64,000 bases of DNA from assembly GCA_051294905.1 (NCBI GenBank), contig CM119372.1, positions 20,400,001-20,464,000 of the forward strand, read 5' to 3'. Both the position numbers and the translations under genes were made by a program. The stretch's first letter is position 1, and the number at the start of each line of letters is the position of its first letter. Below are positions 3,009 through 46,843 of the stretch, piece after piece. The DNA comes from Botryllus schlosseri. Its lineage: Eukaryota. The notes beneath the pieces are model-generated. The model ran no database searches, was not told the DNA's origin, and was given only the letters and a program-made list of their open reading frames with translations.

Positions 3009-6000
3009 TCAGTTTGACTTTTGAAGAGCGATCGTTAATTTGTCCTCCTTTCTGCCCACGAATGTCAACGTCTTTGTCTGATAGTAGTTGGCAGCAATTT
3101 CGATGTTTTGGATGATATCACTAAGCAAATGCGCCCTGGTGACAGTCGTCCCTGGGTTGAAATTGAAATGTGTTACAATAAGAAAAGAGACTTCACTACA
3201 GACACTGGGAAGATTTCAAATGGAGAATCTGACTATTGTTTTGAATATGCAAATTTCAGATCTATTCTCTGTATGAGGAATGGGCACTTTCTTCAGTCGG
3301 TAGGGTAGGATAACGGAGTGAAGTTTTCCAACAATGAAGTGATGCCGCACATCCGCTGTGACGCAGCAAAAACAGATGTCACAGAATGTGCGAACCCTTG
3401 CCGTGAGGGTTCAGACATCAACTAGACATATAGTTACGTTGAATATCATCCTCACCTGGCGCATCAAAGTCATTGTGTGTGAAATGAACATGGAGATGAT
3501 AATACGACGGCTGATAGTGAACATATATCCGCAACTTCTCCTTTGGAATGTTGTATTTGTCAAATATTGCTTTCTGAAACAAGATAAAAACAAGGTATCA
3601 CCATCACAGTATTTGTGCAACTGCAAATCCATTGCAGCTCCACAATGGACAAAGCCATACTAGCAATAATAATCATAGGTGATCACTAGGGCTATTTTTT
3701 TTTACCTACAAAGGAAGATTTTGACCTAATAAATCAAAATTTTGACATTTTTTGACCTTAAAAAACCTAATTTTGATCTAACGTATGCAAATTAGGTGTT
3801 TTCCCACATAATGCTATAATTGTACTACTTGTCTTCATATCTGGTTGGAAATGTCTGTCTTTGCGAAGTAGTTTGGACTGAAAAAACTTTTTGACTCAAA
3901 AACTTACAAATTTTTACATGAAAATACTTCATCTCAACGAAATCTGGCCCTATAAAGAATTCCAGTAGTTACGTCACGTATTATGGTAGAAATAATTAAA
4001 ATTTGTTGTACAACGAATGATACTTTTCTACATTCTCGGGTAGAAAGTGTCTGTCCTAAGTAAGTAGCTTGCCAAGAATGAAGAAAGAATGTTCAACAGC
4101 AGCACTTGTTCGCAGACAACGCTGAAGTTGTGCGTACACTGCTGGTGACACACCGTGTTGCTTCATTCTGACAGTGGTGTCTACATCACAATTTGCTAAT
4201 ACCGTTTATCTCTTACCTGTCCTTTGCTTAGAATTCCTCTCAAAAGCGGAAGGTGTTCTGCAGTGAGGTCCCTTAACGACTTTATGCCTCTTTTGTGAAT
4301 AAGAGCTGAAACAGAGGATACAATGCCCTTCATGGTACATATGCCAACAAGCTAGATTTCTACTGGATGCAGATTACTGGAGGATTGGTTGACCGTATAA
4401 AATGGCGTGATACCTTGTAGCTGTAGCCATAGTATACTAATGTATGATGAAGAGCTTCTTGGAGGTACAGAACTTCAATATACAATTAAATAGTATATTC
4501 ATATTGAAATGAACCCGAATATTTTCGGCTGACACTCGTCAGGGGTAATCGTCAGCAACTAGTAGAGAATTGGAAAGAACATTGTATATCAACAATCGTA
4601 TCACAAAATATGACGTCACCAGCATGAAATTTCGAATGAGAGAGCGTTCAATGTACTATTTTTAGGTGTACATTGAACGCTCTCTCATTCGAAATTTCAT
4701 GCTGGTGACGTCATATTTTGTGATACGATTGTTGATATACAATGTTCTTTCCAATTCTCTACTAGTTGCTGACGATTTCCCCTGACGAGTGTCAGCCGAA
4801 AATATTCGGGTTCATTTCAATATGAATATACTATTTAAATGTATGATGAGGTTATCGCCAGATATGGTGTGGTACTTCTACTTTTTCCGAGTACTTTAGC
4901 AGGTATTGTCCAATCGGTTTAGATTCAAGTGTAGGACCGCTTCTGCTTCAATAGTTTCCTGATAGAATCGCATCTTTTTACATGTGAAAGAACCACTGGT
5001 TGAAATATCAGAGTCACAGTACATAATTGCAAAACCACAGCTATAGTCATTCTGTGGTAATTGAGGTGATGGGTCGTGTAATGTCAAGTTTTGTCACAAG
5101 TGTCTGACTGATGGAATTATCCCAATAAAAGTATGATATACAAAGTACTTTTGTAAGAATCTTACTTCTATTTGAATAGCATCAATCACGACTCTGATCA
5201 TATCTGAATTCAGATACATTTTCACCAACCCTGACATCAGCATACTGCTTCTCTTCAAGGGGTCAGTTCTAACGGGGTGATGCAAAATATGATCGAAGTA
5301 CTATATTTGAATAGCGTATTCTCTCTTGTCGACAATTATACAGTAATGCTCTACCAATTAAGTAAAGAGAATTGAGGTCGCTGACGTCCCACTTCATATC
5401 AGGTAACAAAATAAATCCTGTTTCCAAGTCGTCATCTTCAAATACAATCCTCTCCGATTCGGTTTGCTTGTCTAATATGTTGAAAACCCACTGAAACACA
5501 AGGCATCATGAATACAACTCTGACGTCGTAGAATCGAGGCTTGAAACTTCTCACAATCCATACCCGCTTTCTGACACATAGCAAATGGCTGGTGACACCC
5601 CATAAAACGGAACTAAGGCAGTTTATTTTAGTTGGTGACACCATAGTGGACATGCGGAGGAACATAACGTTATCATGTCAGCACCTACATTTTATATACT
5701 CTTCACGCAAATCCCGAGAAGCCATGCCAGTTAACGAAGATATAACTGTTTCACAAGTAAGTTTTTGGATTTGAAGTCACCTACCAATTGAGAAGACGGG
5801 TACTCTACCGCTACTCCAACTCCATCAGTTAAAATGCAAAACAGCAGGAATATTATAAGAACCTCTGAGCAACACTTATTACAATACCTGCACACTGAAC
5901 TTATTCTCCTCCTCCAGATATGGGAGAGTGATGTTTTTATAATCGTCATACGTTTCTTCCACAACGACCACCTCTTGCTTTCTGTACTTGTCGATGTGCT

Positions 6001-7579
6001 TTTGCGTTGCCGGATAGATCATTGTTGTCTAAGGATGGCACTCACAATTAATTGTGATATTGCTATATTAACGACTGACAGCAAAGAAATAAACCCTCCA
6101 GTCTTGCTGGAGATTAACTGGTCAAAATGAACATAAAACATGACTATAGAGGCGAGGAATAGGAATACAAAGAGATGTGAGTATATATAAATTGAAGTAC
6201 TGGAATCCGAGCCGAGTAATGGATGACACGGTTTAAGTCTAGTATTGATTTTACATCTTTCTTTTTAGTACCTGTAACACCACCTAAATTTGCAACTGAA
6301 ATTTACTTGCCAAACAAGGATACTTAACACCAGAGGATGGCCATTAGCAGTGCTATGACATATTGCAAAGGTTCAGGATCACACGGAGTAACTTTGAGCT
6401 TCAAGGAATGGTTATCACCAAAGACTCAAGGTCATAGATATTCGTGGAAAAGTAACGGGATATCGCCTACATGAAACATAATATTCATTATTATCATTCA
6501 TCATTGATTAATCATGTGTTTGGATTAGCTCCCTTATAATCATTTATTAAATGTTTCAAAATCGGATTGCAAGGTGTTTTACAAGTATGTGACATAATGA
6601 TACTCCAATACACAATTTGACGACTAATACTCAGAATCGATACAGTCAAGTTTAATCGATTTTGCCCCGCCCTAAATATTAGGGTGGATAGATCACAGAT
6701 GTAGGCTATAGTAAATGTATTAGAAGTGGATTATTTTGATTAGCTAGTACAATATTGTATATAAGAAAGGAAATTACTGTTATAATTAGCTGTAAACAAA
6801 CAATGACACTGATCATAATTCCACATCATTGGTTATTATCAAATTCGGATATTTAAATGAAGGCAACAGGATAACCTTTAACATCCCATGCCTTGGTTTT
6901 GGTGTAGCAGAATAGGTGCTATAGATGTCATTTGATATAACTTGCTGAAGCTCCGTTTCACTCGAAAGTAACGACGCCAAGCCCTCTTCAGATGTGTCGA
7001 ATGGTTTCTTTTCCAGGATAACGACTGCCAAAATTAGAAGAAAAACATTAAGGATTTATAGCCTACCATATTTGAAAGACCGGCTTATTCTATAGGCAGT
7101 GTACAATTGTACCAGAGGACAATGACACTTTTATGGAACAGGGCTGTTATAGAGAATGTTACAGAGAAGTAGCCTAATATGCCTATATTTTGCAATCCTG
7201 AACCTGAAGTGAACGTTCAGGATGGCACATGCCACATCATTTTGTTGATTGCCTTTATATCCCCTGCCCGGCCTGCCTTGCTTTTCATACAGTGTACATT
7301 GCCTCAGCGGGTGTCTGATCTCAAAGACTACTCCCAAGTCGTTTCGACGCCTTCCTATCTTTTCATTGTACCACAGTTTTGTGGTGTTTTGAATTATGAA
7401 AATATTTATTAACTGATACAACTGATACCTGCATCTTTATTTCCAGGTTCAACCACAGCATGTAAGAAAACAGATTTCTTGTCCTTCAACTCATTCAGGA
7501 CGCGGGCTTCTTTAAATCCGTGAAATGGATGGATATCTATTTTCGCGACTTTGCAGGATGGTTCCGTGCTTGATTCCAT
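3009..7579 (-). CDS. DCPS: m7GpppX diphosphatase (scavenger decapping enzyme, HIT family)
   Basis: Coding exons 7579-7429, 7024-6876, 6028-5888, 5490-5355, 4305-4217, 3573-3456, 3151-3009 (927 nt, 308 aa; all GT-AG, phases consistent). Motifs [50 protein letters not shown] and [12 protein letters not shown] (HIT triad). Confidence 0.95.
4513..4556 (-). ncRNA. Minimal type I hammerhead ribozyme (opposite arm of the foldback)
   Basis: Reverse complement of the same motif, with stem I ACCC/GGGU. It lies on the DcpS sense strand. Confidence 0.72.
4768..4810 (+). ncRNA. Minimal type I hammerhead ribozyme
   Basis: CCC-CUGACGA-G(ugucagc)C-GAAA-AUAU-UC-GGG: intact catalytic core, stem I CCC/GGG, 1-bp stem II and palindromic loop III. 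Upstream GCUGAC (4768-4773) is complementary to loop II GUCAGC (4791-4796). Confidence 0.75.
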
Positions 7580-9073
7580 TTTACCAGTATAAATCTTTCG
7601 CGGAGTGTTTGAGCACTATACGGCTTGACGGCGGCTGCCTGCTGTACTATACATTTCTGTTGTGGGGAATACCCTATAACAAATGTACATGTGACATAAC
7701 TCATGCGTATCACTTGGTGCCGACAGGAATATCTCGCGCACCCGGAAAAGCTTTACTTAATCGACTTAATATCTCATTTGGTGACCAAGTTTCGTAACTT
7801 TCATCAAGCTATGAAATCTAATCTGGTTTAAAAATGAAATTAAACGACCAATCGATCTATCGCGGTGGAAGAGTATGAGATACCCCTTCGATTAATTAAC
7901 AAATTGACAATTTTATTGAGATTTAAAGTATGAAATAGAAATGTTCAAAATTTTACATTGCGCTCTACTCTGTTGATAACCAATCTGTATCAAAAAATTA
8001 CATTTACCATGATATTTATCCAACGTCTGCCTATCCCACTTGAAGTTTGGAAAATAGGCATTCTCATGCGTAAATAAAGATCCAGCGCTGAGGCCGACGC
8101 GGCGTTTTCACTGAGATTTAATGAGTGAAATAAATACGGCCAACGTAATCTTCTAACGATTCTTATTTCTCAACAGGTAAGGTATTGCCTACATATTTTG
8201 TACTTTAATTTTATTTCATCGTTCCTATGTTTTATTGCATGTGTTACCTTACATATACTTGTCCAGTGTCGAGCAATTTGACACGATTGCAAAGTTACCA
8301 AAATGGCAAATGACTTTTTTCGTTTGCAATTAATTTTGTTTCTTGTAAAAATATTTGCCCTAGTTATTATTTGGGGATTAACAAGGAGGCAAGGACTGTG
8401 CTCTTCCCTTCAGTCTTCAGCAATCAGCATTATACAAGCTTACAGCAGAGCATATTACCTCATCATGAACATTATTACTCCTATATAGGATATATCAAGT
8501 TAACCGTAATCTAGCAAAGTTTGGCGAGAATGTTTATCGCCTTGATCGTTTATACATGGGAAATTATTTGACTTTAACGGCAATGCATACTCTCATAAAG
8601 CCCTCTGTGATGAAACCAGACTTTAAGTTAACGATGTCAAAACATGTGAGCCTACTCAATCTATGTCATGTCACTAAATCTCAGCATATATTTTGACAAT
8701 GTCAGGATAAGCATACCATAACTTGAAACCTAACCTTACCCACTCCCTTACGCATAGGCTGACATCACCAAGCAAGGCAAAATCATATGCCGATATCAGA
8801 AATAACACCACAATATACACAATGTGACAATGACATTAAAATCGGTGAAATTGCCACCAAAGTGTACTCGTACTCGTACTTGTTGACATCGCCAGAACAA
8901 ATCCACCACTATTTCTCATATAGAACGACTTGATTCATATTTCATAGTATAGTTTAATTAAGTTCAACCTCACCTAAATCATATTCTGTGCACCTTTGTA
9001 GCATGAAATACATTTATAAAAACCATTATTTTTTCTGTTAGTTCAGTAATTGACACGGTAGTGCAGGTAACGC

Positions 9074-9439
9074 ATGCCTATGGAAGAACCAGCAGAAATT
9101 TCCGGCATCACAGACCTGGACTCCCCCCAAATAGTGGAAGAAGACGAGACTCAAGCAAATGACGAAGACTCTGGTGAAAAGTCTGAAAAACTCAGCAAAT
9201 TGCCGTTGGCCAGAATCCGAACGATCATCAAAGCTGACCCGGACGTAGCCGTCGCCAGCCAAGAGTCGGTGTTTCTTATTTCCAAAGCGACAGAGTTGTT
9301 CATCGACCGTTTAACGAAAGATATTTATCGAGTCACACAAGCGAATAAGCGAAAGACCATCCAAAGGAAAGATTTCGATATTGTGACTGACACGTGCGAA
9401 GAGCTTGCTTTCTTGGAAGGTGCTATTGACCTGAAATGA
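9074..9439 (+). CDS. POLE4: DNA polymerase epsilon subunit 4 (histone-fold protein)
   Basis: 121 aa, intronless CDS. KLPLARIRTIIKADPDV...ISKATELFI...KRKTIQRKD...LAFLEG matches the POLE4 histone fold. Confidence 0.9.
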   Translation: MPMEEPAEISGITDLDSPQIVEEDETQANDEDSGEKSEKLSKLPLARIRTIIKADPDVAVASQESVFLISKATELFIDRLTKDIYRVTQANKRKTIQRKDFDIVTDTCEELAFLEGAIDLK

Positions 9440-10283
9440 GTGTGACACATGACTATACGAAATGTCACAAGTTATACTCTCTGCGGCAATATGGGAGTGC
9501 CCCATGGATTTATGCAGGCATATCATTCATTTAGGCTTAGTGACTAACGCTGGGCACAAGATTTTTCGATTTTTTTCAGGATACCAAATTATGTGCTTTC
9601 ACACTAAGACATCAAAAACACGTTACCTGATTGTTTACAAAGTGAAAATATTTTGGAAGATGTGTAACCGGCATTATTTCCTTGTCGCCGCAAAAACTAC
9701 ATATTTTAACTTCCCGACTCATTGTTACTGTAACGACATCATAGCAGGCGGTACTTGAATATTCTACTCGGAATTGATTGATTCACCCAGATTATTCCCA
9801 ACCCAACTTGTGAGCTGTCAATTGTCATGATGTCGATATGTTTGGATCAAGTGTTCACAGGACTATATACACTGTTCAGGATGACAATGGTAATACCGTA
9901 CAAGTTATAAACTGAGATAACTGGGCATACCCAAAGAGTCCAAAGACCCACTGCAATAGTGACGCTGGGCTTCAATTCCAAAAAGATTTTTCTGAAAATA
10001 CTTTTCAGATCTGAACATTATAAAATGCTAAAATCTGTGCTAGATTGTAGTCGGAGTTTACTGACTGTGACTGGCCTGATGTTGTGGTTCAAGTCATGTG
10101 GTACCCCGGCCCGGAACATGATTCATGTCACAGTTGTCTTGAGAGATGTATAGAGTTTGTTCTGCATGATATCATTGGATGTACAGACAACGATTATTCT
10201 GTTTTACCACATTTTCTCATCTTTTTTTTAGGATCTCTATTCTATTGTTAGTGTATCAAACATACATTGTTACTCATGAGATC

Positions 10284-13200
10284 ATGGAGCTTTCTTTCTT
10301 ATCCTCTCTCAAAGAAAATTTAGGAGATCTTACAACGTCACCGCTTCCATTCCTACAAGGAGACACATCTACGTTTGAGGCGTTCAAGACTCAGTGCAAA
10401 AATATTTACGATTTTTCCAAGTCCCTGCACGTGTCTACGCGGCCCGATCCTATTCCAAAATTGTTGATCGACGGTTTTGATCAGGAACAAATATGGGGTC
10501 AACTCGAACTGCTCAACAAAAAGGAAGCAACGATATGCTCGAAGGCTGCGGAAATATTGACTGCAAATGAGGACGATATCACTTTTCATGATAAGCCCGA
10601 AAGTGAAATGTCTGATGAAGATGCTTCGTTAGATTCAGCACAAAACGATGATGATGCAGTTTCTGGCGACGGAGATCAAGGTAATGTCAGATCGTAATCA
10701 TGTTGTGGTACGGTAGATATAACCTGAAATTCTCCCCTTTGAGTACCTCACTTGACTTGTTTCAGCCGATATTCAAGAGATATAGCATCTAGCTTGAGGC
10801 GTCTTTCTAAAGCTTTGGAGCATTCATTTGAACAGCTTTACAGTCATTTCTATGATTGGTATAATATCAGCGTTTCTCAAACTTGATTGACACAATGCCC
10901 CCTTGGCCATAATTGAGGCACCAAGTGCTCCCCCCTACCCCTATCAACAGAAAGTTGTTTCGCTTTTTGCTCACTCAAATAAAGCTGACGCTTGTGGCCT
11001 TTTTAGGTCAATATAATTCATTGGCAGTATGCTACGTCATTACATGTTATTTCAACATCATAACTCTGTAGAGATCTGACGACGGACACTATCAAGGAAT
11101 AAAATTGTGCAAGCCAAATTCTCTTACATGTCACCGTACTTCATTGGGGTGCGTTAAGTTCTTGAAAATTCATCAAACTCTTTGTAAAGTTGTTTATATA
11201 TGTGGGTACAATAAGCCTCGCTAGCCAAGATTTTCGTTTGTTACGATCGATTGGTAAGAAAACTCAATTTTGCATCCTAGTGAACATCTATGAAGAGTGT
11301 TGGTGACAATTTCAGATTGAATGCGGCTTGCACAGCAGCCAACGTTGACCCCATATTCATATATCTCTTAACGCACGGATACAGATATTAATTAATGTTA
11401 TTATTAATGATGTTATCGGCGAACTTATAATAATCGATCCCACTGTAGTAGTGATAAATCATTCCACCTCTAAATCAGTAGGCCGCAGGTTCCAGTCCCA
11501 TTTGGGTCAGACCAGAGACTTGGTGTACCCTGCCGACTTGATAACTTAACAATTCCTTTGCATCCGTGTCGTCAATGACTGATAGTTTTACTTCCTTGTG
11601 GCACATTGAACATTTTTATGTTCATTTGTTCCAGAAAGCGATTCTGCGGAAGGTTTTCATTTCGAGGAAAGTGACGAGGACGAAGTCGACCGTGACGAAG
11701 GCGAGTTTGCCGACAGAAAGAAAATCCAAACTTTCGAAAGAACCGAGGTGGACGACGACTTTTTCAGCCTACGCAGAATGGAGAAATTCCTGGAGGAGGA
11801 AGACAGAAAATTTGAAACGGGACAAAAGGAACCGAACGAAGACGACGTCGATTACTTTGAGGACGTTTTGTCGTCGGCAGACGAAGAAGATTCCGATCAG
11901 GAGGAAGATGATGCTCGCGAGAAGTCCACGAGGCATTTGAAGTATTCGGAGTATTTTGACGATCCCGATAGTCTGAAGACTATGGACTCGAGTCAAGTCG
12001 CATCAAAATCCATGGAAGTAACCGATAAGGCGAACGCCGGTAAAGACGAGTCACGATTTGAGAAACATCAAAAATTGCTTGCGAGAAAAATCGCGGTGTT
12101 GGAAGATAAATCGTTAACGCAAGCCGAATGGCAAATGAGAGGTGAGAGTTTTACAGGCTTTTATCGTTCCGCTTTTTGCCTGAGTTTTGAAGTGTGGAAA
12201 TTTGGAATGTTCAAATGATTACTAGTAACTACGCCTGCATTCGAGCTACTTGCCACTTTTGCTTTTCACATCCACCGGATCTATGTCTGTCTGGTTGCAT
12301 CCGCCTTGTGCTAGTAAACTTCAGGGGTGGACAGTAACAAAGTAATTATACTTTTTGCAATTGTGGAAGTGGCCTACTTCTATTACTTACTTACTTCTTT
12401 TAGACTACCGGTACTTTTCATTTCCACTATAGTCGTTTTGAATTGGTCGCAAAGACGATCCATCTCTCGATTTTGAAAACTGGCGGCTCGGCAATGGATG
12501 AGCAAATATCTTCAAAGCCTCGTCCTGAGCTACTTCTACTTGTACTCGAGTACCAGTAATGACTACTTCGACCACATCAGAATCATAACATGCCATCAAC
12601 GCTTCTCGGCTCATCATCTGAATATGTACAGGGGAGGTAAAAGCTCACGCTAGACCGGAAAACAGTCTTTTGCAAGAGACGCTTCAATTTGAGAACGTAG
12701 CGCGGCCTCCGGTTGAAATCACTGAACAGCACACGAAAAGTATCGAAGACATCGTTAAGCAACGGATACTTGATGAAGCTTGGGACGATGTCAAAAGGAT
12801 ATACAAGCCAGAAGGTGATACTATCTAGTTTCTTCTGCCTTCTTGCATGATACGGTACTTCAACTGTTGGTTACTTACATTTTTTGCACTTTATTTTCTT
12901 TTGGCACTTTTTATTCTTCAACTTAACAAGCAACGTATCAGCAGGTATGGGTAACATGATGCTATTCTTACCGTGTATAGGCCTTTATTTTAAGATACAG
13001 AGACACTTTGAAATGATACAAGAAACTTCGAGTTGTTAAATCGGCAATTCTCAACCGTTCCCACCATGCAGCACCCTAGCGTTTTTAGTACTCAGAGTGC
13101 AAGATTCGGGAAGCTGATTACTTAAAAAGGCCACCACTATTCACAATATTAGTCACATCACCCACGATGTTATGGACATTCTCAAACCATCCTTTCTAAA

Positions 13201-16200
13201 TTTAGGCCTCTTATCACTGACCCATCATTTTTGTTGATACGTTTGTTTGCCGATTCCAGAGGCTATAGATTAGGAAACCCTCTCATAAAGCGTTAATCTC
13301 AAATAATTATATAGCGTCATATCTGTTATTTTCATTAGACGACCCGCAGGAGTACAAGAAGCGGATCCTACTCGATTCCAGTCAATCCAAACTAACTCTG
13401 GGACAGATCTACGAGAAGGAATACATGGAAAAGATGCAGAAGACTGGCAAGAAGGACGCAGACGAGAAGGAGACAGAGGATCACGTCGCTATTCGGCGAG
13501 AGATGGACGATCTCTTCCGAAAGTTGGATGCGTTATCAAACTTTCATTTCATCGCGCCTCCGCCGGAACCCGAGGTGAGATGTGTTCAGGTTTACTGCTC
13601 AGATGCTATCAGTAACAAAGTACTACTCTTTTGAAGTACGGTAAGTAGGTTTTGCCCACTTGAACAACATATTCGAGTGGTTATGTTTCAGACCATTGCT
13701 CTTCAACCTTTTCTTGGAGTGGTGCACCCTGGTGGTGTGCAAAGTTGTAGAGCTCTGTCTCATGCACATGCACCCCTGTCAGGTTCAGCTACATAAACTG
13801 CGTGTGTCACCTAAAAAGAAGGTCATCATGTCTGAAATTGTAATATATTGCTTAATACAACTAAAAAAAACTTTGCATGGCTTTCATCTGGCTGCCAAAT
13901 ATCGGTCCATTCCCAGAGGCTAATTACTGAAATTAGGTCGACAAAATCACGAGTTTCACCCGCCGGATATGAGGCCCTGATTTTAAGTACAATGTTTCTC
14001 ATGCACCCTTTTGTGCTGGTGCACCTCATGCAGATTCCGATGCACCCTGAGGTGCCCTGTCCACACCGGTTGAATATTACTGTTCTAGTCTAGTTCCACT
14101 TCTACATGATAGTTATTTTATCAAACCAACTTACTCTCTTATAGCAACAAGCGAAATTTATTCCACTTGAAGCTTTTCGACTGACTCTCATCAAATATCA
14201 GATATATACAATATATCATGCATTTAAATAGACTCGTGAAGAAGGTACAGAACTCCAATATACATTTGAATAATATATTCATATTGAATGAAACCCGATT
14301 ATTTTTGGCTGTCGTTCACCACTCGTTCTGCACCAATAGCTATTCAATTGCATATATCAAATATCATAAATGTTATGAATTTACCTCAATTAGATATTAT
14401 AATGAAATATTTAATTTAAAAAATAAAATCTCGCTCAAATTAGCACTAAAAATAGTGATGCAAATTATCCCAAACTACGCTCTACTTTTTAAATCCAAAG
14501 TATGTAATTAAGTAGTTCAAGTAGGCAAACATACTTAGGTACTCAGAAAAAGTTGAAATGCTTCCTTATGTACCATTGCACAACTTTGCACCTATGTTTG
14601 CATTCAAAACTGGGACCCTGTCAACAGATCAAGCTTATCACAAACGATCCCACGATCGAACGGGAAGAAGTTCAGCCTTCGCTCAACGCCGAATCTGACG
14701 TGCTGGCTCCTGAGGAAGTATTCTCGAAGAAAATGTCTGAGGAAAAGTCCTCTGTGGAGAAAACGTCGACTGACAAAAAACGCGAACGCCGGAAAAAGAA
14801 GTTACGGGTGAAGGTGAAGTTTCGTTTCGTCTATTCCTCATGAGATGCTGGTTTTCACGAGACCTTGATCTGTATTTCGAGTTCTTTCTGGTAGCTATGG
14901 TCACGCAACAGTCTCGTATGTTTCAGGCGCAATCAAAAGCAAAGTTGGAGCGTATGAAGAAGGTCAACCCCGAAAGCAAAAGGGTCAAACAAATCGAAGC
15001 TATCGATCAATTGAAGAAAGCTTCCAAGTTGCCGGGAAGTGGCACCAGAGTGCTGCAGGTATCCGTCACTACATCACAATAGATCCGTGAATTCAAGTCA
15101 TTGTCAAAATATTTTCGCTCAAACAAAATCTTCATCCTGGTTACGCCTATGAACACACAACCTACCCCCAACATAACCACTAATCCAGTTGTTCTCAACC
15201 AGTGTGGGTGTGCTGCGAGAAACTGGCAAACAAGGTCGACAACAAAAATTAGGGTTGAATCAAAATTCTGAGTGTGGCGTGATCAGTGGTTCTATTAGTA
15301 TCACTACTATTATTACTCAAGACACACAATATACAGTGCGATGCAATGAACAGATAGGAAGATGTCGAAACGACCAAGTGCGATCTCTCAATCTGATATC
15401 CTCAGTCTTAACCTTTCTTTTTTATGCTTACTCTCTTTTATCATTCTCTTCCTTGGATCAGTCCCTAATTAGTTATTTCTCTGGACTTTGGAGGATCTCA
15501 GATATACCTCTGACCCTTCGGAAGTTGCTACTGCCAAGAATCAAACGGGGGGCTCCAATTGTGATGGTACAGTAACTCGCCCACACATTGTAGCATTTGG
15601 GAAGTGATAACAAAACAATAGGTCAATTGGCAATTGAACCTTGATGTTGAGGTTTGGCTGAAGGTGTTGATCTTTTTTCTAGTCACCCCAGTCCTAATCG
15701 GGGGATGAACAGTGATATGGCGCAAGTTCATGACCTTTTTCTTTCTGTTTCTTCTTTTAGTCATCGTCTTGCCAAATTGACATCTGTGGTCATTTTACAC
15801 CACACCGATATTGCTTATTATGATTCCTGAGATGAACTTATAGCACGGCCCCCTTTTGCTCCAGACTTTTTGTAAGACACCGCTTATGCGGATCGGATGA
15901 AGAGGACGAGCCTAGGTAGACCCTCCAACACTTAGGATGGGATTCCGGAGTCGACCTGGGTCAGACTCAAACCTGCACCCCTTGAACTTAACCCAATAGC
16001 AGTTTACCGTGAAGAAGTATTTACAATTGAATAGTATATTCGAGATTCATATTGAAATATACCCAAATATTTTCGGCTGACACTCGTCAGGGGAAATTGT
16101 CAGCAACTAGTAGAGAATTGGAAAGAACATTGTATATCAACAATCGTATCTCGAAATAAGAGAGCGTTCAATGTACTATTTTAAGATGATACACGAACTC

Positions 16201-16569
16201 CTTTTGTTGACAAAGTATTTTGATAAAGGTCGACTCCATGGCACACATGAAAGTGTAAGCGGCCCCTCCCGATGATGCGAAATCTATCGTCTCGATAATT
16301 TTTCGCGCACGCGGAGAAATATTTGTTAGCATTGCCAATATATATTCAGTTATTCACCCATGATGTATGTGCAACGGAAAATAATTTGGTTGCATAAGCC
16401 AAGCACTCTGATCGCCTACTGAAGAAGACTCTTGCCACCTCGGTGTTTAATATGTGTTCTCTTACAGGGCGGAAAACAGTCGAAAGAGAAGATGACGTCA
16501 CAGAAATTTTTCTCAAAACTTCAGGAGAATAAAACAGCTGCGCCCGTGAAGAAGAAACGGCCCGTTTGA
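10284..16569 (+). CDS. MPHOSPH10: U3 snoRNP protein MPP10
   Basis: Exons 10284-10680, 11635-12141, 12632-12814, 13339-13574, 14628-14813, 14927-15058, 16468-16569 (1743 nt, 580 aa). Motifs GFDQEQIWGQLEL, VDDDFFSL, WQMRGEV..RPENSLL, LFRKLDALSNFHF, LAPEEV and FFSKLQ. Confidence 0.93.
13694..14082. mobile_element. Degenerate hAT MITE in an MPP10 intron
   Basis: Ends cattgctcttcaacc and ggttgaatattactg; internal TGCACC repeats; TSD degraded. Confidence 0.5.
16062..16104 (-). ncRNA. Hammerhead ribozyme motif (single-arm copy, last MPP10 intron)
   Basis: Minus strand reads GCUGACA-auuu-CCC-CUGACGA-G-UGUCAGC-C-GAAA-AUAU-UU-GGG: core intact, 7-bp pseudoknot possible, AUU cleavage triplet. Confidence 0.65.
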
Positions 16570-45695: not shown

Positions 45696-46104
45696 GGGTA
45701 AAGAATTCAGTTTGACTAATTTGTATTGGAGCTTTCACTCCATAAAGCTCAGACACTTAACACATAAAGTATTTCACCGGAAATATACTCTTTGCAAACT
45801 GTTGACGATACCCTTCGCCATGTTTCATCGTCTCACGGCAAGCCGTGAGGGGGTGACGTAGCCTATATGTCAAAGGATGATGGCCTGGCCATGGTCAAAG
45901 TCAAAATTATCAATACAAGCGCATCCGATCGCAATAGTCTGACGATAAATAGTTTTTTTTCGTGACCATTCGTTTCGCTGAATATATTAATTGTCCAATA
46001 TCCACTAAAATGGTAGTTGATATTTGCGTTAACATTAAAAGAAATTTTATCGATAAATATCAATATCGCGGGGTCGCCTAGAATCTGCCTTGCATAATGG
46101 GGGC

Positions 46105-46290
46105 TTCTTGGAGGTACATAAGCTCAATATGCAATTATGAACCCGAATATTTTTGGCTGACACTCGTCAGGGTTAGCCTAATCGTCAGCGACGTCAGCAA
46201 ATAGTAGAAAATGGGAAAGAACATAGCATTCTATATCAACAATCGTATCCGGTATCCCAAAATAAATCGCCCCGGCATGAAATTTCGAAT
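46105..46290 (-). mobile_element. Degenerate copy of the hammerhead-bearing repeat
   Basis: Aligns to 4455-4640; core GAAA is mutated to AAAA; carries a GCCTA insertion at 46176-46180. Confidence 0.7.
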
Positions 46291-46843
46291 GATCGGGGCG
46301 AAGAGAGAACTACGCAGGGTGTTCGTATATGAACTATTCTGCCAGTTAACACTTTGACTGCCAACAATCCTAAATTTAGGATTTTACTTAATCCCATAGA
46401 GTGCCAACGATCCTATATTTAGGATATTTTTCCTATGCGTACAGTGAAGTCCAGAATTGGTTCTATCCCCGGATTACGGGTGTATTCGAGGCTACTCATA
46501 AGGCTTGTTGTCAGAAACAGCCATTTTCGTTACCGGAAGTATTTTTTAAAAATCGCATCTGTATACAATAGGCCAACCATTTTTGGTTTGACCAATAGAT
46601 GGCTTTTCATAAAATGAGCATCCAAAAAATTGCAATATTTTTAAAACTGCTTGATATTGAATTTTTTTTTTATAAGATGCACAAGGTGTACACTTATCAG
46701 CACGCCCGATTCCAGCTAAATATCCAACTAGTCGAAAATTCATTGTTTGCTGGCGTTTACTGGTGATTTCCATAATAGGCCTTGGAAGCTAAAGTGTTAA
46801 GTATATTGTAAGCTGCTGTATCCGTAACTCATGGACTCGTTGT

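Follow-up and report, generated by a model that had tools for sequence, protein, structure and literature searches.

A polymorphic foldback insertion in a DcpS intron

The window, by which we mean the whole 64,000-nt stretch of DNA analysed, G000:C2:20400001-20464000, carries a DcpS gene on its minus strand, and one intron of this gene, inferred from the reading frame together with Pfam, houses a 387-bp insertion. The parts of the locus are as follows.

5355..5490, minus strand: DcpS exon upstream of the insertion (Pfam DcpS_C positions 1-35)
4306..5354, minus strand: DcpS intron, GT...AG, phase 1
4216..4305, minus strand: DcpS exon downstream of the insertion (Pfam DcpS_C positions 39-67)
4451..4837: 387-bp insertion, made of two 3' ends (pLTRs) of a Penelope/Poseidon element, both truncated on the 5' side and facing outward
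4439..4450: target-site duplication, left copy, 12 bp, identical to 4838-4849 and single in the empty allele
4838..4849: target-site duplication, right copy, identical to 4439-4450
4451..4668, minus strand: long arm, with the last 7 ORF codons (H-L-K-I-V-H-stop), the pLTR and the next ORF copy up to +52..+55
4451..4485, minus strand: 'tail' extension, in the long arm only, from the comparison of arm ends (tails are described in the available text of PMC8557442, PMC3846280 and PMC11167929)
4657..4668: hairpin loop and inversion junction, made of element sequence, not filler
4668..4837, plus strand: short arm, with the last codons V-H-stop, the pLTR and the ORF start to +16/+17; 169/170 identical to the tandem array L031 described below

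The exons on either side of the intron 5354-4306 are in frame once joined and correspond to neighbouring parts of Pfam DcpS_C, which bears out the intronic position given in an earlier account made from the letters without database searches (the sequence-only reading). The near-perfect foldback noted there was recovered as two inverted arms (4471-4656 and 4668-4853; 186 nt each, 97% complementary, spaced by 11 nt), whereas its proposed bounds of 4480-4844 gave way to 4451-4837 for the insert. Within the element the arms mismatch at a single base, 4546/4778, the 11-nt hairpin loop consists of the last codons of the ORF of a Penelope-like element (PLE), and the pattern spanning the inversion junction occurs once genome-wide, all genome searches having covered a 495.5-Mb assembly. 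An Rfam match to mir-310 at the hairpin apex, at 38 bits against a gathering score of 48, was rejected as a hairpin artefact.

In the empty allele, 4438 is joined to 4838 with no extra letters. This allele was found in the contigs of runs X1 and X6, two of three contig runs, while those of the third, X5, do not span the site; one of the two is the run that matches best, which may be the source sample, and the other carries the label of a different organism. Because an empty allele exists and the inversion junction is unique, the insertion is recent and polymorphic, and it is extremely truncated. Two more high-copy repeats, with very deep contig coverage, lie in DcpS introns at about 3700-4195 and 7334-7393.

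The insert ends 145 nt from the 3' splice site of the DcpS intron, and neither strong GTRAG donors nor poly(A) signals were found in it on the DcpS strand. In the DcpS pre-mRNA the long arm (4451..4668, minus strand) lies in sense orientation, and the antisense arm is transcribed first, just as had been claimed. Folding energies of -314 kcal/mol for the whole insert and -12 for the hammerhead motif alone make the claimed sequestration in a hairpin plausible, yet such sequestration is expected of any outward-facing PLE insertion. The ordinary RNA-seq run X23, about 6% of which was read, gave low DcpS depth, no splice joint among those listed, no excess of A>G/T>C changes and, as a weak test, no pile-up of ends at the predicted cut site; the run is uninformative on the DcpS locus because arm reads stem from all copies of the element.

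The source is a Penelope/Poseidon-type element

For the right arm, a first look at the genome returned 413 candidates, and the 40 scored were all 98-100% identical; in many of 30 extracted loci it stood directly after coding sequence, and the source element was located from eleven longer genomic regions. At L031 its units, 2692/2693 bp long and with an intact 848-aa ORF, follow one another in direct tandem. This single ORF contains an RT domain (Pfam RVT_1, E 7.8e-9, above the cut-off) and the motifs DKG, YVDD and GYVGRT, and its C-terminal part displays GIY-YIG features, namely GYVGRT with an upstream Y-x-Y and a C-H-C motif at residues 727-741. Pfam GIY-YIG made no call for the 848-aa ORF and reached E 0.0019, below the cut-off, in a 67%-identical sister family, and the ESM Atlas neighbours of the ORF were eukaryotic RT clusters, one of them with GIY-YIG in 27% of its members. 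The 848-aa ORF has no CxxC and no Zn-finger-like linker between RT and EN, the mark of Neptune/Nematis in the available text of PMC8557442. Its last 200 aa drew 8675 genome candidates, with 150 of 150 scored being 98-100% identical, and no candidate stretch for a protein relative was confirmed in the viral (0/164) and prokaryote (0/49) collections.

Both arms are at least 99% identical to the 3' end of this intact autonomous element; against the L031 tandem unit, the long arm (4451..4668, minus strand) shows 0 mismatches and one gap at the junction, and its end at +55 counts 3 nt common to the target. Each arm is a pLTR, running from the end of one ORF copy through the ribozyme-bearing spacer into the start of the next. 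Tandem units with a pLTR, an inverted truncated copy, a tail at one end and a target duplication, the features of PLE membership, were all found. Judged by its architecture, from which alone the clade is assigned, the source is an active autonomous Penelope/Poseidon-type element. The Penelope link and the inverted pLTR of the sequence-only reading were thus confirmed, the arms being 3' ends of an RT + GIY-YIG element, and the search it had suggested, for the arm beside Penelope ORFs or in tandem arrays, recovered full-length 2.69-kb RT + GIY-YIG tandem copies.

The L031 array (G000:C16:20953000-20962500) has at least three, possibly four, head-to-tail units at 99.9% identity, ends at +17, and may have been produced from a circular or multi-unit template. 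Elsewhere, at L034, three PLE families are nested in 8 kb, each interrupting another's end, with 67% and 51% identity to the present family, A (C-terminal 300 aa), and at L027 (1900-3100) short inverted pLTR fragments alternate 80-120 nt apart, with several partial hammerheads. The minus strand of the window itself holds three further fragments of the element family to which the insertion belongs (16019-16309, 46103-46292 and 14243-14311); they are older and more diverged, the first keeping the last codons of the endonuclease and the second having a duplicated pseudoknot strand.

Copies end at two places and pair one long with one short end

Among 93 distinct arms, copies end at two places relative to the ORF ATG, about +17 and about +47 to +61. 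Outward-facing neighbour pairs combined one long with one short end in 22 of 28 cases and two long ends in none; of the short-short pairs (6/28), three lie in the rearranged array L027 and three where the ungapped walk halted early, and two of the latter three actually run to +60/+61. As the first locus set was ranked on the short arm, it is of note that the pairs from loci chosen by protein were long-plus-short in 10/10. An 11-14 bp duplication was present in 19 of the 22 long-plus-short pairs, one of the 19, in L027, being doubtful. Where the two arms overlapped by 90 nt or more, they had variants in common in 13/22 pairs and differed at a common segregating site in 2/22, which fits one template, or conversion between arms. 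Two templates for the two arms, hinted at by the internal mismatch, were considered and rejected, since variants are mostly shared and the change occurs in 4/93 arms. Several short foldbacks elsewhere, about 340-670 nt between ATGs, vary in length and continue into the ORF. Folding gave no support for a hairpin in the tail (z -1.26; equal stability in 57/500 shuffles).

The anole Poseidon protein cuts and extends both strands, its RT initiating at two sites that bound the tail (Frangieh et al., PMC11167929, available text), and an inverted truncated copy with a one-sided 30-40 bp tail is described in the accessible parts of PMC8557442, PMC3846280 and PMC2377424. By analogy with these anole and PLE papers, both strands would have been primed at the two sites. 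We propose that the endonuclease of the element could nick both target strands 12 nt apart, that each 3' end would prime reverse transcription on one template, at about +17 or +55 of the ORF, and that both cDNAs would stop after 170-220 nt and then be joined head to head. The scheme starts from the observed source element, ends, target duplication and empty allele, and supplies by inference the nicking, priming and joining.

A pseudoknotted hammerhead motif in each arm

Each arm carries a type I hammerhead motif, composed as follows.

4768..4811, plus strand: type I hammerhead, with pseudoknot strand 4768-4774, stem I of 3 bp, core 4782-4788 and predicted cut after C4807
4779-4781 (CCC) and 4808-4810 (GGG), plus strand: stem I, by sequence match
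4782-4788 (CUGACGA) and 4798-4801 (GAAA), plus strand: core elements, by sequence match
G4789-C4797, plus strand: stem II of 1 bp, with loop II at 4790-4796, by sequence match
4801-4806, plus strand: loop III palindrome AAUAUU, by sequence match
4513..4556, minus strand: minus-arm hammerhead (core motif 4545-4514), with stem I of 4 bp and predicted cut after C4517

Both motifs stand where the sequence-only reading had put them, mirrored on the minus strand, and its loop II pseudoknot is there as well, GCUGAC at 4768-4773 being complementary to GUCAGC at 4791-4796, with 7 bp including a G.U. A4546, in stem I of the minus arm, is the majority allele. The motif is not due to chance, given that the genome matches its pattern 5229 times and the reversed control 0 times. 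The Rfam scoring that had been suggested returned no hammerhead family at E<=10, either in the window or in seven loci of other families. The long hairpin helix II by which minimal PLE hammerheads are recognised is absent here, only G10.1-C11.1 pairing as a hairpin; stem III has 2 bp as a monomer and 6 bp as a dimer; and for the family A motif on its own RNAfold favours a competing hairpin, in which the core pairs with loop II. Because the insertion offers one sense copy, has no partner in cis and has its antisense arm made first, the hammerhead at this locus, whose cleavage is predicted from sequence, is most likely inert.

The pseudoknot is conserved across families

Copies of the same young family cannot show selection, and therefore families were compared, seven from the genome (A-G) and four from metagenome contigs (M1-M4), as 13 representatives aligned with MAFFT. 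The pattern matched 561 times in family G and 46 times in family C. A metagenome scan kept 80 of 125 related loci; all 31 with at least 240 nt behind the ORF carry the motif or a decayed copy of it, 27 of the 31 belonging to the redundant family M2, and 16 loci with the motif pattern on viral contigs were left out of the comparison. The upstream strand and loop II read as follows.

Family A: GCUGAC/GUCAGC
Family C: GCCGAC/GUUGGC
Family G: GUGCC/GGCAC
Families M1-M2: UCUGAC/GUCAGA
Family M3: UCCGAC/GUCGGA
Family M4: UGACGC/GCGUCA

When loops and upstream strands were cross-compared in a matrix, the best partner for the loop of G, M1, M2, M3 and M4 proved in each case to be the upstream strand of that family itself. 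Over the 13 representatives, 82.8% of cells are paired against 73.2 +/- 2.4 after shuffling, a value reached in 0/500 shuffles, with the upstream strands of M3a, M3b and M4 set out of register by MAFFT, which mostly lowers the pairing counts; slid controls gave 25-49%. The covariation score, computed on rows that are kin, is 0.328 against 0.188 (0/500 shuffles), and two of five measures are not above shuffles (118/500, 394/500). Four of the seven pseudoknot pairs change on both sides, and a matching loop occurs in 44 of 46 copies with a changed upstream strand. Helix length is unremarkable in 5/13 representatives (shuffle p 0.10-0.64), and family D has a mismatch within the pseudoknot helix. 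As for the core, G10.1-C11.1 is kept in 13/13 representatives and C3-G8 becomes U3-A8 in 3/13, while family M2 (L121-L199) mostly has U3.G8 for C3-G8 and its start codon 3 nt past the cut, in stem I. Conservation of core and pseudoknot, on which the sequence-only reading had staked its ribozyme, thus holds between families (13 representatives), and the pairing of loop II with the 5' strand is supported by covariation as a conserved feature of the pLTR.

Loop III is exactly palindromic in 7 of 13 rows by a script test, reading AAUAUU in the window and AAGCUU in five other families and M2, and inexact in D and G. The letters of the palindrome vary among families (AAUAUU, AAGCUU, AACGUU), as would be expected for dimer cleavage. 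The palindromic loop III could therefore let the ribozyme cleave as a dimer in tandem transcripts, probably aided by the protein of the element, as judged from other PLEs.

Promoter-like motifs and the start codon bracket the ribozyme

Around the hammerhead, the pLTR shows the following.

4736..4767, plus strand: TATA-like motif 4736-4741 and initiator-like motif 4762-4767, just 5' of the pseudoknot strand, inferred at motif level
4588-4557, minus strand: mirror TATA-/initiator-like motifs, also at motif level
4822..4824, plus strand: ATG of the PLE ORF, 14 nt past the predicted cut; mirror 4502-4500

With loose patterns and no control, 5/9 sequences have TATA-like motifs 45-50 nt ahead of the core, and 8/9 have an initiator-like motif 17-23 nt ahead of it. 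From the predicted cut to the homologous start codon there are 14 nt in A, 10 in B, 4 in M1 and 3 in M2; in family M4 the first ATG is 41 nt away. Because the initiator-like motifs adjoin the pseudoknot strand and the start codon closely follows the cut, this arrangement suggests that the ribozyme may constitute the entire 5' UTR. On both arms the promoter-like motifs face outward into the DcpS gene. The palindrome TGACGTCA lies in the pLTR at window 4706-4713 (mirror 4611-4618) and is present in family B too; it may be a CRE/ATF site. In the available text of the respective papers, TATA/Inr motifs are given for a PLE pLTR (PMC3846280), an internal promoter without TATA for Drosophila Penelope (PMC2377424), and, for some RNA viruses, a ribozyme cut just before the start codon that drives cap-independent translation (PMC13725137). 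Every examined copy extends beyond the cut site, and therefore the template was uncut, or religated at the 3' ribozyme.

Discussion

Based on these findings, we propose that an active autonomous Penelope/Poseidon retroelement recently left a dead-on-arrival copy at the locus, with a pseudoknotted pLTR hammerhead that is probably inert here (probability about 0.9). The anatomy of the locus is known PLE anatomy. As far as the available text of PMC8557442, PMC3846280, PMC2377424 and PMC11167929 goes, EN+ Penelope/Poseidon elements likewise have a single ORF with RT and C-terminal GIY-YIG, tandem units and a pLTR overlapping the ORF start, together with an inverted truncated copy, a 30-40 nt tail at one end, a short target duplication and TATA/Inr-like pLTR motifs. 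What differs is the extreme truncation, with arms of 170 and 218 nt, a target duplication of about 12 bp against 8-10 bp given for rotifer PLEs, and the rule of one long and one short end, which is counted here, unlike in earlier PLE descriptions.

The ribozyme departs further from what has been described. In published metazoan PLE hammerheads helix II is long, helix III is short or absent and activity is low; they occur as pairs on opposite strands 100-700 bp apart, and 56/56 rows of Fig. S3 show helix II as a hairpin of at least 3 bp (Cervera and de la Peña 2014, PMC4209133, in the parts available); a review, available in the same measure, finds them usually without tertiary interactions (PMC6155905). 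The motif described here resembles them in pLTR position, type I order, G10.1-C11.1, short helix I, palindromic helix/loop III, the U3-A8 variant and the opposite-strand pairs at 100-700 bp, but has a helix II of 1 bp and a loop II engaged in a 5-7 bp pseudoknot with the 5' strand. The 1-bp stem II, which the sequence-only reading took as usual for PLE hammerheads, is thus an unusual feature, because in the published ones it is helix III that is minimal, helix II being long. Pseudoknots occur in about 40% of hammerheads, in all three types, and one with a 1-bp stem II and a 6-bp pseudoknot cleaved at >1.2 per min (Perreault 2011, PMC3088659; structure of a pseudoknot hammerhead in PMC11300833; both in available text). 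In these, too, a single pair is left of helix II, whose place is taken by a 6-bp pseudoknot linking the stem I and stem II regions; however, the assayed one is of type II, from a metagenome and with a stable helix III, whereas the present one is of type I, eukaryotic and retroelement-borne, with a helix III too short for a monomer. Animal non-LTR retrozymes share the type I hammerhead and the link to PLE pLTRs (PMC7229834; bioRxiv 10.64898/2026.07.22.740005), but the text available describes them as non-coding direct tandem repeats with canonical loop-loop contacts, in contrast to the inverted fragment of a coding element seen here; further comparison drew on the accessible parts of PMC6765202, PMC10085705 and PMC5737381. 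The locus is therefore ordinary, and the pseudoknotted PLE hammerhead with a 1-bp stem II is apparently an undescribed variant of a known pairing of ribozyme and retroelement, in that no paper on it was found in the literature searched, outside which subscription papers and preprint supplements largely lay. One that may show it is by Lünse et al. from 2017. These authors are said to have reported small PLE hammerheads that cleave as dimers.

The sequence-only reading had placed the foldback in a distinct non-autonomous ribozyme retroelement family, retrozyme- or MITE-like, which would move as the 387-bp unit. Other short foldbacks with about 340-670 nt between ATGs do exist, and PLE-derived non-autonomous retrozymes have been described (bioRxiv 10.64898/2026.07.22.740005, available text), but those foldbacks vary in length and run on into the ORF, the junction seen here occurs once in the genome, the arms match an intact autonomous element at 99% or more, the hairpin would bury its own ribozyme, and animal retrozymes are direct tandem repeats, so that we regard a family of this kind as extremely improbable. 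Hardly better are the prospects of the proposal that the foldback has been co-opted and now suppresses or adjusts self-cleavage of the intron in the DcpS pre-mRNA. The arm transcribed first is the antisense one, and the hairpin is far stabler than the motif, as co-option would have it; yet this geometry is common to every outward-facing pair, the arms are 99%+ identical to the active element and the motif has about 5000 copies genome-wide. Regulation of DcpS is unsupported because other alleles, including that in the contig of the best-matching run, are without the insertion.

A different matter is what the ribozyme does in the element at large, where the answers are compatible with a Penelope insertion as the origin of the locus. 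The pseudoknotted motif could be a real RNA structure that does not cleave in vivo and acts in binding or translation, or cleaves late with the aid of protein; we hold this to be a serious though doubtful alternative. That all examined copies pass the cut site, with templates uncut or religated, speaks for it, as do the U3.G8 dominant in M2, the competing fold of core with loop II, and the anole ribozyme, which in the available text of PMC11167929 depends on protein, can be dispensed with for in vitro insertion and has no read ending at the site. Against it stand G10.1-C11.1 in 13/13 and the change of C3-G8 to U3-A8 in 3/13, the pattern of a working core, and the fast cleavage cited above for a 1-bp stem II with a 6-bp pseudoknot (PMC3088659). 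Somewhat more tentatively still, and rather unlikely in its full form, in this Poseidon-type clade a competent pseudoknot hammerhead may be the whole 5' UTR: transcription would start a few bases before the pseudoknot strand, two copies in one tandem transcript would join through loop III and cleave, yielding a unit-length RNA that lacks a cap and whose AUG follows the cut by 3-14 nt; this RNA would be translated cap-free or circularised as the template of tandem arrays.

If the whole-5'-UTR reading is true, it would provide a fast PLE ribozyme and a handle on the purpose of PLE hammerheads, which have been described as minimal, free of tertiary contacts and nearly inactive, the pseudoknot being the contact that makes other hammerheads with a 1-bp stem II fast. 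The locus is one of thousands of PLE end fragments, and the form of the ribozyme matters more: it escapes hairpin-helix-II descriptors and current Rfam models, and sits in a family that is very active and includes intact copies of full length. The pairing of one short with one tailed end and the 12-bp duplication, for their part, give a genomic count that matches the two in vitro initiation sites of the anole element. Elsewhere in the window, on the plus strand, the ORF at 9071-9439 looks like a histone-fold protein, presumably of the POLE4/NC2-alpha type, and that at 10170-12218 looks like what we take to be MPP10.
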